Of a stretch of 64,000 nt of DNA, positions 27,001 to 39,000 are shown one piece after another (the first letter of the stretch is position 1; each line of letters opens with the position of its first letter). The stretch lies in assembly GCA_045611785.1 (NCBI GenBank), contig JAZKXV010000021.1, positions 14,903-78,902 of the forward strand, written 5' to 3'. The position numbers were made by a program. The DNA is from Alphaproteobacteria bacterium. Lineage in GTDB: Bacteria > Pseudomonadota > Alphaproteobacteria > RF32 > CAG-239.

Positions 27001-30000
27001 TTTCAGGAGCGATAACAACATCATCCGGATTAGGAACATACACTTCTATATCAAAACGGAACTTCGTCGGATCTAAAGGCATATTCTTTATCCAATCTTC
27101 TTTTTGATTACGCTTAGTAAATGTAGAAACTGCCGATTTTTTACCTCCGTTGAAACCTCCGGAATTTACTCTGGACCCACCACCAACAGAGCCTACAGAG
27201 CCGGATTCAGTTTGAGCAGAATCTAACACTTCAATATCAATAACAGAGTTTGTTAATCTTTCTGTATTAAAACCTTCACTTCTTGCATAAAACACATATT
27301 TATTACCGGAGCGGCCGAAAACTATAATATTTGTATCAACACCAAATCCGTTTTGAGGATACAATAAAAGCGTATTAGGTCCTGAAATCTGTCCGGCAAA
27401 TTTATTATTATCACCTATATACACATCCTCAACCATTTCCCATTCAGGAAAGTTTATCAATGTTAACATACCTTCTCTTAAACGCAACGGCAAAACCAAG
27501 TCCGGAGACCAATAATATTTTGAATAAGCAGGTTTTGTTTGCCCTTCTCCTAAATTTTGAAGAGGATCAAGCCAAGCACTTTGCGTCATACCAAGAGAAC
27601 CCATCGCATAACTCATATTCATTGACGGATATTGCCCTTGTGCGTTATCGGCTGTTTGATCAAGGCTATTTGTAGTAACTTGTGCATGAACTGAAGAGCA
27701 CATTACCACATATGTTAATACTGAAAATATTTTACTTAAAAACTTTACCATTTCCACAAACCTTTTACTCTGCTTTATTACGTTTTAGCGAATATCTAAC
27801 TACAGTGAAGCCTACCGGATTATTAAGCCTTTCACCATATTTTACATTTTTCTTACGATACACTATTCTAAGAGAAGCTGTCCAATATTCAATCTGAGGC
27901 GCAGATGAAGAAGGATACATATCTCTTGTTTCGTACTCTACTTGCCACAAGCCTCTACCTAACTCATTCACCGTCATAATTCTGATAGATCTTGTAAGGC
28001 CTTGCTTTTTAATAATATCTAAAACTGTATTTGCTGTTTTTTCTATAAATGCCTGATAAACAGCAGATGATGACATTTCTTGTATAGGACCACCCGGCAT
28101 CCAACGAGATTCCATTTCATTTATATTATTAGAAAAAGCACTACGCATAAGCACATATTCTCTAACAAAAACCTCTGTAATATCTTTGTCATCTTCCAAA
28201 TTAACAAAAGGCTGAATATCGTACACTTGTTCCTGTTTATTTTCAAATGTAAGTATAAATGGTTCAAGACGATACAAAGGCAACAATTGCGTTATAGCCA
28301 AAAGCAATATAAAATTGCAACACAAGCTAATAGCAACCACGACAGCAAAAGCCCTTGCAGTCCACAAATATCTACGTTCTCCGGCATTAACTATTACATC
28401 TTCATGCTTTGGTTTGCGTGAAGGAGCCGGCCTGCGAGCAGCTTGAGGTGGAGCGCCACGATTTCCTATTAAACGACGATTTGTGTTATTTATACCCAAA
28501 TGTTCAGCCATTTCACACCCTATTATATTGTTGCAACAAACCATTCAGGAAGTGTGTGCGGTAGTTCAACTTCAATGCACGCACATGGTGATAACTTAAG
28601 TTCATTAACATCTTTACCTATACCAACAGGCTCCGGCTCATAATAAGAGCCGCATGACGATAGCAACATAACCATCATAAACAAAAACACTTTTTTATAC
28701 ATTGCAATGTTCCTTATAATTACATGTCTAGACATTATTACATTAAACTTTTTATTTTTAAAAGTCTAACATAACCTTCCAAATCCCCAACTTATCAACA
28801 AGTTAGAGACCCTTTTATAATATCATAAACTAAAAAGATTAAAATAAATTAAAGAATTTCAACTTCTGTTTGAGAATATTTTGTTACCGTAAAACCCAAA
28901 GGATTCATCAAACGTTTCGACATAAACATTCTATCCGGCACAAAAACAGCCACAATAGACGCTGTCCAATATTGTGTTTTCAGCACCAACTCATTGGTGG
29001 TTAAGTTTCTAACCATTGGAGATAATTCGTATGTTTTAAAATCCACCTTCCAAATAGGGCTCTTATCTCCACCAACTTTATTAACCGATATGATTTCTAC
29101 AGACCTTGATGTTTTATCCTTAGACAGCTCTTGCAACTGAGCTTCCACCCTTTTCATAGGCTTAACATACACACCTCGCTCAAATTCATCAAAAACCTTA
29201 TCTGAAGATAAATAATTTATCATTCCACCACCAAACCACCTACTTTGCATTTCTCGTTCATCATCAATAACAGTATGTCTGAGTATAACATATTGTCTGA
29301 TAAACAGCTCCATCATTTGTTTTGCTGATGGCATTTTGGTAGAAATGGTTTCATATCTAACCATTTCATCAGAATTATCCTGACGAATAATCAAAAAAGG
29401 CTCAACATGTACTTCAGGGGCTAGCTTAAATAATACCAAAGAAGCACTGGTAAAAAACATTAAGGAAAGTATTGCTATAAAAGCCACAAACCTTGCTAAC
29501 CAACAGTAATAAACTTCTTTTGCAGAACCATGTACCTGACCTACAGATGTTACATAATTTACGTCTGATACATTCTTATAGGAAGTACCTATTGCAAGCC
29601 GTTCATTTGTTGAACCCAATTGATTATTCATATTTTCTCCGGTTCTTAATATACAGCACAGTATGGTGACATATAGTTTTCTTCTTGATCAGTATATGAA
29701 CTTTCTACTCTTTCATCATACTCACCAAGTGTTGCCTTATCAGTATCCGCTCTGGCAATAGCTTCTTGAAGCTCTTCCAAAGTCATATTTTCTGAAATGT
29801 TAACAAGAGCCCCAACGTCTTCTTTTAACATAGCCAGTAAATTATCTATTCTTTCAAGGCTTTCATATATCATACTACTGTTTATGTCATCAACATTTTT
29901 GAGCATCTCTTGAACATTTGCAAGCATAGCTTCAGCTTCTTTAACTTTATTATCTTTAATTGTCTTCAACTCTGCAATAAAGCCATCAGATACCTCTTGT

Positions 30001-36000: not shown

Positions 36001-39000
36001 TTTTTCAGCAATTGAAGACGCTAAGTTTGCTGCCACATGCTCATGCATTGCTTTTTTATATTCTTCTTTACACTCTAAACCTTTAATTGCATCTTTATTA
36101 CCATCATTATCTAAACCTGCCATACATTCAACCCATGTTTGGATACACTCACGAACCTTATCTTCGTTTTCAGCATCATCAACACCCATATCACACTTAA
36201 CCGCTATTATTTCAGAAAACAAAAACTTACCTTCTTCATTAGTTCCGGTAGCGCCACTACTGAGCTGAGCATAAGAAGATGATGACACTACACCAAAACC
36301 AAATTCTGCGCCATCAGTATCCATCGACGATGTCTTAAAACCTCTTGTCTGTGTTTGTATATTTAAAGGAGCCACTCCATTGGTATTAACAGCAGCCGGA
36401 GTATTCTCAGCGGGGGCTTGCGTGTTTCCACCCTGTCCAGTTACATTACCAACAACTCCCTGAGCTGCTGAAACAGCAGAATCAACCTTGCCCTTTGCAG
36501 CATCAACAGCACCTTTAGCACCGGAAACAGCAGAGTCGACAGCATCTTTAGCAGAATCAACCGCACCCTTCGCTTTATCAACAGCACCTTTGGCGTCGGA
36601 AACTGCAGTTTCAACCTTATTCTTTGCATCATTAACCATATCTTTTGCATCTGTGATTGTTGAGGTAACTTGGCCGGCAACATCTTTAACATCATTTATA
36701 GCACCGCTAACTAAATCTTTTGCACCAGCAATTTTTTTGCGCAACTTTGCAATACGTTCTTTAGTCTTCTTTACGCGCTCTACTTTTTCTTTAGCACGCT
36801 CAGCTAATGCTTTTGCATCTCTAAACTTTGTAATAACATCTAAGTTATTACCCAATGCCACAAACTCTTTTGCCTGACTTAAAGCAGAATCCACAGAAGA
36901 TTTCAACGACTGAGCACTGGTAACGACACCTTTAATTGTACCAGCAACCTCTGCTATATCAAATGTAGGAAAACCAAAAGAATAACAAGGAGGCGCCCAA
37001 AATGTTACACCTGTACACAACAGAATAACATAAGTCATTTTTTTAATTTTATTCATAATTACCTCCTTATAAATAGTCTTTACATATTAATAGTTTATCA
37101 CATTGCCAAATAAAGCTAAAGTTTTTTTTAATAAATTACGAAATATTTAAATATTTTGTAACAAAGTTCTCTTCACCATATTCCTTAATAAGTTCTTCAA
37201 CCAATAAAACATTCTTACTACCTGAGTTATAAATCTTCAGATATGGACCGAGAGCGCCTAGGTTAACATCCAATATCACAGATTCAAATGTTGCAGGTCT
37301 TGAAAGCAAGATAGCATACTGACAATCACGATACGAACGTCCCAATATAAAATCAAGCTCGCTGTCAGTTAAATTCCAAGTCGCATAGTCTTCTGGCATT
37401 GCTTGCGGGTTCCTAAAGAATATAATTGTTTGACACTGACCACGAATAGCTCCGCCAACACCCAATTTATCTATAATATTAGGCTGTTGAAACGCACACA
37501 AATACGCCTGACGTTTTTTACGACCTTCTTGCAAACCGATAATAAAATAATCTTTAAACATCGGGTGCTGTAACATAGGTGCCGTTTCGTCTATCATGAT
37601 AAGAGCAGGATCACCAGTTTCGCTCGCTTCAGCCTGTATACGGTGCATAATATAGCTAATAACGGCCGGAGCTTTGACTTCATCTTCAAAAATATGTGTA
37701 AAGTCAAAAGCCATAAATCTCTTAGTTTTCAAGTCCAAACTATCACCTTCAGCATTAAAAAGACCACCATTCTGCTCCGGATCAACCCAACGATAAAGCT
37801 CTCGACGCATCACTCCTGTAGGAGAAAAACAGCTCTTATACAAATTTTTTAATATACGTTCTTCTGGACGCAAATATTCAAACGCAGTCGTCACCGCACG
37901 AGCAATTTCATGCTCCGAGTTAGCATCTTTTGCCATTGTAATAGATTTTAGCCATCCTTTAAGGAAATCTCTGTTAACTTTTGTATCTCTGGTATCAAAA
38001 GGGTTAAGAGACACATTTTTATTATCACCATCAAAGCCTACATACGCCCCACCTATTGATCTGGTAAAGATTTCAGCACCTCGGTGTCTATCAAAGAAGA
38101 ACACCCTCAAATCGCCGTGACGCATTGCTTGTCCGGCCAAAAATGTTAATAAAGTTGTTTTACCTTGACCGGTAGGACCGATAATACAACAGTGACCCAC
38201 AGCATAATCATCTGATGAAACATGGAACTGGAACCTATATGCAGAACCTGACATGGTTCTAAACACCGAAATAGCTCCCGGACCCCAGTCACATTTACTA
38301 AAACCTTCAGATGGTTTATCAAAACAAATAGCCATAGCAACAACTCGGGATAAATATCTGTATGTTCTAGGATATGTATCATATGTCGGAAATTGACTGA
38401 AGAATGTCGCTTGAGCCACCCAACCTTCACGAACAGGTGTAACACCATACGAACGACATATACGCTGAACTTCACTTTCACCAAAATCTAGCTCTTCTTG
38501 AGATCTTCCTCTCAACATTATACTTAGAGCATACTCCGTTAAAGCCTGATAATCAGCATCACTATCTTCAATTGTTGCAAGAGCTTGAGAATATTGATCC
38601 AATATTTCCGGAGAAAAGCTTGTCAATGCGGCCATTCTTTGTTGCTGCATCAAAATCATTCTTGCTTGAGGCTTAAATATCGGGCGAATATTATGCATAA
38701 TAACTAATTCGCAATCTATTGAAAGCAAAGAAACTATCATACTCTCATCCATATAATCACCCGTTGTACGAATACCCATTGCAATTTCGTACAATTCCTT
38801 TTCACCGGAGAAAAATTTAATAACACCCTTTTCTTTAGTGAAATGTATATGGTCTGCGGTCAACATTTCTTTTAATTCAGCACCTGAAGAATTTCTGACC
38901 TTAGGTGCCGGACGAGATACCGGTGAACACAATCTTGAAAACACATACAAAGGACTATCAACCGCCTTACTATCAGGAGACTCATACAATTGAGAAACAC

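Follow-up and report, generated by a model that had tools for sequence, protein, structure and literature searches.

The DNA analysed here, a stretch of 64,000 nucleotides (the window) from an alphaproteobacterium of the RF32 lineage (CAG-239), contains a type IV secretion system (T4SS) operon in which the interval between virB4 and virB8 is filled by four genes for exported proteins, termed X426, X220, X429 and X1410. The four genes constitute a lineage-specific exported module of the T4SS, in the place usually taken by VirB5, VirB6 and VirB7. The first protein, X426, is predicted to be a very diverged and enlarged VirB5, and X220 shares its C-terminal domain. With a probability of roughly 0.5, we favour the view that the module is a fast-evolving stalk-tip or pilus-tip assembly, formed around the diverged VirB5 X426 and the related X220 together with two lineage-specific partners, that X1410 serves as a long structural element, and that virB6 is located elsewhere. 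The genes of the interval and its boundaries are as follows (lengths in amino acids, aa).

37136-39622, minus strand: VirB4 ATPase, upstream boundary of the slot (PF03135, E 2.8e-18; TIGR00929, E 4e-116)
35776-37056, minus strand: X426, 426 aa, predicted diverged and enlarged VirB5-like exported protein
35111-35773, minus strand: X220, 220 aa, exported, helical
33889-35121, minus strand: X429, 410 aa with the ATG at 35121 as the likely start (429 aa for the mechanical reading frame, which extends to a TTG at 35178)
29646-33878, minus strand: X1410, 1410 aa, exported giant protein
28849-29631, minus strand: VirB8 copy 1, downstream boundary of the slot (PF04335, E 1.2e-14)

The genes of the virB4-virB8 interval

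All four open reading frames (ORFs), which a preliminary description of this DNA had proposed from the sequence, are present on the minus strand. They are real genes, because the gene order recurs in related loci, the genes have been called independently on other contigs, and the ratio of nonsynonymous to synonymous divergence (dN/dS) between the window and the related locus L083 is below 1 for each of them, at a synonymous divergence (dS) of about 1, which is near saturation. The length of 429 aa given earlier for the third product should be revised, since homologues favour the start at ATG 35121, and 410 aa is thus most likely.

Related loci were found via VirB4 (80 loci at 66-85% identity) and were considered over 10 kb on either side of virB4. 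They all come from metagenome-assembled genomes of uncultured gut, rumen or faecal Alphaproteobacteria. The records of L011, L042, L050, L052 and L072 name Lachnospiraceae, Eubacteriales, [Ruminococcus] gnavus or Bacteroidaceae as the source; as the operon is alphaproteobacterial, mis-binning or mislabelling of these assemblies is probable. In the relatives, the interval always holds four to six co-oriented genes for signal-peptide proteins without transmembrane (TM) segments. According to BLAST clustering, the products fall into four main families, F426, F220, F429 and F1410. About 50 of the 80 loci have four or five genes from the same families in the same order, with sizes of roughly 500, 230, 420 and 1350 aa; variants of the slot have a duplicated F426 gene or an additional short gene. 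Independent gene calls on the contigs of L082, which is more distant, and of L083 and L085, which are closer, reproduce the identical layout, and no interval gene of these three loci carries a Pfam label.

The export signals that had been proposed are well supported. All four proteins begin with a basic and hydrophobic N-terminus ending in A-x-A, which is kept in homologues, with the A-x-A residues 50-90% conserved by column. The claim that none of the four has the multi-TM topology of VirB6 was also confirmed. Past residue 45, the highest mean Kyte-Doolittle hydropathy over 19 residues is 0.64 for X426, 0.82 for X220, 1.25 for X429 and 0.94 for X1410. In the same analysis, the VirB6 protein TrwI of R388, which served as the control, has four segments at 1.9-2.5, and of 288 members of the families, all but 6 lack any segment that reaches 1.6.

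Two statements about protein architecture did not hold. The proteins were described as entirely alpha-helical or coiled-coil, but residues 965-1410 of X1410 contain a beta-rich subdomain in the AlphaFold model, with a predicted local distance difference test score (pLDDT) of 73-89. The repeats described as 11-mers have a mixed spacing of 7 and 11 residues, with a hydrophobic period of 3.6 residues. The apolipoprotein-like stretch of X1410 (around residues 91-120) is an insertion found in only about 14% of the homologues.

X426 as a probable diverged VirB5

The X426 gene is directly downstream of virB4, in the window as in the relatives. The protein can be divided into the following parts.

residues 1-25, minus strand: X426 signal peptide
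residues ~26-70, nt 36847-36981, minus strand: VirB5-type start FGFPTFD and first helix
residues 95-205, nt 36442-36774, minus strand: Ala/Lys/Asp-rich amphipathic 7/11 repeat
residues ~240-426, minus strand: cysteine-containing C-terminal domain

Past the cleavage site, the consensus of the X426 family reads ..wPT.D..eI, and TrwJ-like VirB5 proteins have qgiPVFDaa at the identical offset. An example is the alignment of FAN-IPAFDPMSFIPDLKQFKELAADLRNTKEQLNQ with the VirB5 sequence AqgIPVFDaanlanqveqiakmkeqleqlksqleq. Comparison of the X426 family with VirB5, represented by 64 PF07996 proteins, gives an hhalign probability of 95% when the signal peptide is included. After its removal the value is 35% (E 4e-4), and mature positions 2-42 pair with 2-42.

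A VirB5 hidden Markov model (HMM) made from 64 PF07996 proteins was used to search the ORFs of at least 150 aa in the window and the 80 loci (about 1,700 entries). The top 40 matches were all proteins of the virB4-virB8 interval, most of them from F426, which also ranked first. E-values for F426 proteins were 3.6e-8 (the L080 copy, with the sequence IPAFDPMSF...QLNQ), 5.5e-7 and 1e-5, and that of X426 in the window was 0.011. Other proteins with signal peptides, namely VirB9, TcpQ, the secretin and X1410, were not among the matches. The PF07996 profile itself aligned from its start with one X426 paralogue, the best family member tested, at 20.5 bits (E 7e-4), still under the gathering threshold; the Pfam scan of full-length X426 gave no PF07996 match. 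In two X426 paralogues the VirB5 alignment extends to about 120-170 residues, at low accuracy. Profile searches of the PDB with the four families returned coiled-coil noise, apart from weak matches of the X426 family, amid such noise, to TrwJ (7O3V) and TraC (1R8I) at E of about 0.05. A few X426-family members also matched conj_TraP_IncI1 (NCBIfam) and DUF4141 (Pfam) weakly.

Opposite the X426 repeat, a 129-aa ORF rich in Ala, Ser and Thr is found on the plus strand (36488-36877). This is in all likelihood a mirror-ORF artefact, produced by the Ala/Lys/Asp coding repeat.

Relationship of X220 to X426

With signal peptides removed, hhalign links X220 to the C-terminal domain of X426 at 86% over 120 columns, and X220 shares this domain. 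The same program gives 0.5% for X220 against VirB5 without the signal peptide, and PF07996 is absent among the families listed for 47 members of the X220 family. The protein has no cysteine. Its AlphaFold2 model, calculated from 15 sequences, is all helical and of low confidence (pLDDT 47.7, predicted template modelling score 0.17). It has a long helix at 28-79, then short helices, then long ones at 117-156 and 165-210, an order compatible with a VirB5-type bundle; a Foldseek search with this low-confidence model found no match. The earlier suggestion that one or two of the proteins may be VirB5/TrbJ-like is therefore retained for X426, on account of the VirB5 mature N-terminus and first helix, although below the Pfam threshold. 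It applies to X220 indirectly, via the C-terminal domain of X426.

X429 and X1410

The mature N-terminus of X429 is G-L-K-L-D, and is followed by an acidic helical middle part and a conserved C-terminal block. No member of the family is known outside this T4SS lineage. X429 has no homologue in Pfam, NCBIfam or the PDB, and no link to VirB5 in hhalign once the signal peptide is removed.

X1410 has the following organization.

33804-33878, minus strand: X1410 signal peptide
31899-33506, minus strand: conserved helical N-domain with invariant residues (residues ~125-660)
30999-31811, minus strand: poorly conserved coiled coil of ~270 residues (residues ~690-960)
29649-30986, minus strand: C-domain with a beta subdomain, a helical bundle and conserved cysteines, ending in PYCAVY (residues 965-1410)

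Across 25 homologues, 35 residues of X1410 are invariant, cysteines among them, and in every related locus the gene is directly upstream of virB8. Pfam, NCBIfam and the PDB contain no sequence match, the N- and C-domains having also been searched separately against the PDB. The AlphaFold2 model of the C-domain (pLDDT 62.7) has no fold match. When 1.84 billion representatives were searched with a profile of the C-domain, 285 clusters matched. Of these, the best 150 are proteins of 1,200-1,850 aa, or fragments thereof, with the domain at the C-terminus. X1410 thus represents a sizeable orphan family that is tied to this T4SS.

The preliminary description had left open whether X1410 is a fibre, a tether or a translocated effector. 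A classical translocated effector is unlikely, because the protein has a Sec signal peptide and invariant cysteines and its gene has a fixed place beside virB8 in all relatives; VirD4 is also absent from the window. The coiled coil that separates the two conserved domains would fit a fibre or scaffold function.

We also considered whether the four proteins might all be paralogues of VirB5, but abandoned this view, since the initial hhalign values of 60-95% dropped to background when the signal peptides were removed. The only exceptions were the pairs X426-VirB5 and X426-X220, and a common ancestry of X429 and X1410 with VirB5 was rejected as unsupported. Scanned directly against Pfam and NCBIfam, the four proteins gave nothing but coiled-coil noise. 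In all four families, as in VirB5, a conserved Asp is found within the first 1-15 mature residues (PT.D, ADiE, K.D and Pt.D..tDA). This post-cleavage Asp may be a common docking motif or a coincidence, and lacks statistical support for X220, X429 and X1410.

Proposed role of the module

VirB5 is located at the pilus tip, where it acts as an adhesin. After Sec export, X426 would assemble through its VirB5-type N-terminal helix on top of the periplasmic stalk, and would later be found at the tip of the pilus. X220, and perhaps X429, may serve as partners or as alternative subunits. On X426, the parts displayed toward the target surface would be its variable Ala/Lys/Asp repeat and its C-terminal domain. 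X1410 would act as a structural partner of the tip or stalk complex, as a fibre, tether or scaffold and not as a substrate, its two conserved domains being joined by the coiled coil and probably stabilised by disulfides. The polytopic VirB6 base, which all characterised T4SSs need, would most likely be encoded elsewhere in the genome.

Several observations weigh against this proposal. X426 in the window matches VirB5 weakly, at 8-14 bits (PF07996 or VirB5 HMM), and its N-terminal fragment reaches 14.4 bits (E 0.049) against PF07996, for which the gathering threshold is 24.7. The match is confined to the first 40-60 mature residues (alignments of 41-63 columns); the C-terminal two thirds of VirB5 have no detectable similarity in X426, and the repeat and C-domain of X426 have no counterpart in VirB5. 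The model of X220, unreliable at its pLDDT, lends no structural confirmation. X429 and X1410 resemble no T4SS component, and their roles are suggested by gene context. Neither the window nor the related loci provide a VirB6 partner for a VirB5-type stalk. Finally, a surface or pilus location of the four proteins is hypothetical.

Divergence and alternative roles

The four genes diverge two to six times as much as the core genes of the operon. Between the window and L001, amino acid identity is 35% for X426, 44% for X220, 47% for X429 and 45% for X1410. The corresponding values for the core are 85% for VirB4, 83% for VirB3 and 72-78% for VirB8, with an overall core range of 72-87%. In the comparison with L083, the nonsynonymous divergence (dN) is 0.46 for X426, 0.18 for X220, 0.20 for X429 and 0.29 for X1410, as against 0.03-0.11 for the core (VirB7-like protein, VirB8, VirB9 and the beta-flower protein).

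The divergence bears on the possibility that the four proteins have no role at the tip and instead help to assemble or scaffold an enlarged core complex in the periplasm, much like the additional periplasmic components of the Cag or Dot/Icm systems; the VirB5-like N-terminus of X426 would then be a remnant. The machine is indeed enlarged in other respects (VirB10 has 1418 aa and the beta-flower protein 1702 aa, VirB8 is present in two copies, and VirB9 carries a SPOR domain). The tight linkage of X1410 to virB8 in every locus and the dN/dS below 1 for all four genes are also in line with a scaffold. However, divergence well above that of the other periplasmic subunits fits exposed proteins better than buried scaffolds, and so does the turnover of slot genes, with X426 duplicated and short proteins added. 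Among the alternatives, this one survives best, but we consider it unlikely.

Fast evolution, together with the signal peptides, would also fit Sec-exported cargo or surface-coat proteins, which the T4SS could release in a second step, as in the case of pertussis toxin and Ptl, or adhesins that are merely co-transcribed with the machine. The absence of VirD4 from the window points in the same direction, as cytoplasmic substrates that depend on a coupling protein are not evident. Such a role is nevertheless improbable: in all relatives the genes are embedded in the operon of the apparatus and flanked by virB4 and virB8, X426 has a VirB5-type N-terminus, and no toxin or enzyme domain was detected.

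The missing VirB6

The preliminary description had considered that VirB6 might be absent, replaced or relocated, and its absence from the neighbourhood is borne out: neither the operon nor the rest of the 64-kb window encodes a VirB6-like protein, and none occurs in the 80 relatives up to 10 kb from virB4. Within the window, polytopic topology is restricted to PilR/T2SSF, an ABC-2 fusion protein and a cation-efflux protein; in the 17 loci that were inspected, no interval ORF exceeds two hydrophobic segments. Using TrwI as a query, phmmer found no match at E up to 10 among the ORFs of at least 150 aa from the window and the 80 loci. PF04610 had no Pfam match at E up to 0.1 in the window, and was not among the precomputed labels in L082, L083 and L085. 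The statement that none of the four slot proteins is a VirB6 thus holds for sequence (Pfam, TrwI phmmer) as well as for topology.

It is conceivable that the system operates without VirB6, with X1410 and the VirB5-like proteins forming the stalk, and with anchoring by VirB3, the two VirB8 proteins, VirB10 and the 1702-aa bitopic protein. A T4SS lineage of hundreds of species-level clusters would then have lost its polytopic VirB6 and would build its stalk or tip from soluble exported proteins, with X1410 in the virB6 position beside VirB5-derived proteins. Apart from the negative searches, this would agree with an operon that is otherwise complete and in canonical order, and with X1410, which sits exactly at the virB6 position and, with its invariant residues, is constrained like a structural subunit. 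Scattered T4SS genes are, however, known in other Alphaproteobacteria (Rickettsiales), and the searches covered the window and the 10 kb around virB4 in the relatives only. The window also lacks VirD4, an indication that other T4SS genes, too, are located elsewhere. In known systems, the stalk consists of a VirB5 pentamer on a membrane-embedded VirB6 pentamer, with the N-terminal part of VirB5 projecting outwards, and VirB6 is the membrane base where the pilus assembles (PMC9259494). Even the minimal systems of Gram-positive bacteria and mycoplasmas have VirB6 homologues, with 4-6 TM helices (PMC12857230). We therefore regard a T4SS without VirB6 as the least probable of the alternatives, and relocation of virB6 as likelier than true loss.

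In the prevailing view, all T4SSs have VirB6 as their membrane base, at which the pilus is assembled and through which the substrate passes. A complete, ordered and clade-wide operon with four soluble exported proteins in the VirB5/VirB6 slot points to a scattered gene layout, or else challenges the universality of VirB6. The slot also contributes two families without known relatives, X429 and, with about 285 clusters and no annotated domain or structural relative, X1410. The host clade comprises abundant, uncultured gut and rumen Alphaproteobacteria, the biology of which is essentially unknown; a literature search on T4SSs of this clade (RF32, CAG-239) found nothing relevant.

Operon layout and flanking genes

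The T4SS operon occupies the minus strand between about 41,968 and 15,740, with the genes in canonical virB order. In addition to the genes listed above, it comprises the following.

39988-41139, 41158-41553 and 41579-41968, minus strand: three VirB2/TrbC-like pilin genes
39558-39848, minus strand: VirB3
28523-28702, minus strand: small VirB7-like lipoprotein gene between the two virB8 copies, start MYKKVFLFMMVMLLSSC, with a lipobox
27765-28511, minus strand: VirB8 copy 2 (PF04335, E 1.9e-21), likely start at 28511, ORF extending to 28544
26045-27757, minus strand: VirB9/CagX with a SPOR domain
20940-26048, minus strand: 1702-aa beta-flower repeat protein with one N-terminal TM segment, between virB9 and virB10
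16721-20977, minus strand: 1418-aa VirB10 with beta-flower repeats and a TrbI domain
15740-16708, minus strand: VirB11

The third VirB2/TrbC-like gene encodes 383 aa, with a Gly/Asp/Asn-rich tail of about 290 residues. The first pilin gene is followed by a strong terminator-like hairpin with a 13-bp stem (41539-41568). The small lipoprotein between the virB8 copies is probably the VirB7 of this system, on the basis of its size, lipobox and position; it is called with 59-70 aa in L082, L083 and L085, and is 95% identical to its L083 counterpart at the amino acid level. The counterparts of VirB8 copy 2 in L083 and L085 have gene lengths of 248-249 aa. The beta-flower repeats of both giant proteins belong to PF21785/PF21784. 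In VirB10 they are inserted before the TrbI domain, which is reminiscent of the repeat-bearing CagY.

Upstream of the T4SS operon, and divergent from it, lies an R64-type type IVb pilus cluster.

42359-53449, plus strand: 687-aa unknown protein, TcpQ, secretin, PilO, PilP-like protein, T2SSE ATPase, T2SSF and PilS/bundlin pilin

In 57 of the 80 relatives, homologues of the first two genes of this cluster (those for the 687-aa protein and TcpQ) are found upstream of virB2, in the opposite orientation. This conserved linkage suggests that the T4SS and the type IVb pilus act together. A second PilS/bundlin-type pilin is encoded at 6130-6834 (minus strand), and an additional T2SSE-family ATPase of 318 aa, distinct from VirB11 and from the pilus ATPase, at 61058-62014 (minus strand). 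Downstream of the operon, the region 763-12821 (minus strand) encodes large exported proteins, one of 1840 aa with a pectate-lyase-like adhesive domain, and two of 1147 aa and 243 aa without a Pfam match.

The neighbours of the region are housekeeping genes (TyrRS, AnmK, MlaA/MlaC and a DegT aminotransferase), and no integrase, relaxase or VirD4 was seen within the window. It follows that the T4SS is chromosomal. In view of this location, the link to the type IVb pilus, the giant repeat-bearing VirB10-type proteins and the fast-evolving tip candidates, it is plausible that the machine is an organelle for contact with a host or with neighbouring cells.

Comparison with known secretion systems

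X426 resembles VirB5/TrbJ proteins (PF07996; TrwJ of R388, PDB 7O3V; TraC of pKM101, PDB 1R8I) in its Sec signal peptide, its all-helical character and the position of its gene directly downstream of virB4. Both also have a mature N-terminus of the form hydrophobic-P-V/T-F-D that leads into a long amphipathic helix, equally far from the cleavage site. X426 differs in being about twice as long, and in having the Ala/Lys/Asp repeat of about 110 residues and the cysteine-containing C-terminal domain. X220, in turn, has the size of a VirB5, but no direct sequence similarity.

The rvh T4SS of Rickettsiales has duplicated virB8, virB9 and virB4 genes, several virB2 genes in some genera, and no known VirB5. 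Directly after virB3-virB4, it has three to five tandem large genes for extended VirB6 proteins. Both systems are alphaproteobacterial and chromosomal, with duplicated VirB8, multiple VirB2 and tandem large genes right after virB4. However, the slot genes of rvh encode polytopic VirB6 proteins, whereas those described here encode proteins without TM segments beyond the signal peptide, and include one for a VirB5-like protein.

In Helicobacter pylori, the adjacent genes for CagH, CagI and CagL encode exported helical proteins that are needed for the Cag pilus, and CagL is regarded as a VirB5 analogue. The Cag system is host-interacting and has a VirB6 homologue, CagW. The two systems have in common a small set of exported helical proteins encoded within the operon, one of them VirB5-like, an enlarged T4SS, and a giant repeat-bearing VirB10 (CagY in the case of Cag). 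Sequence similarity to CagH, CagI or CagL was not detected, and we know of nothing comparable to X1410 in the Cag system.

The Trw T4SS of Bartonella mediates adhesion to erythrocytes. It contains tandemly amplified and diversified trwL/virB2 and trwJ/virB5 genes, and is not known to have a VirD4. Unlike the system described here, it keeps virB6 (trwI) in the amplified unit, and two of our four proteins are without VirB5 similarity. The similarities are the three VirB2-like genes, more than one VirB5-related gene with varying copy number, the fast divergence, and a locus without VirD4.

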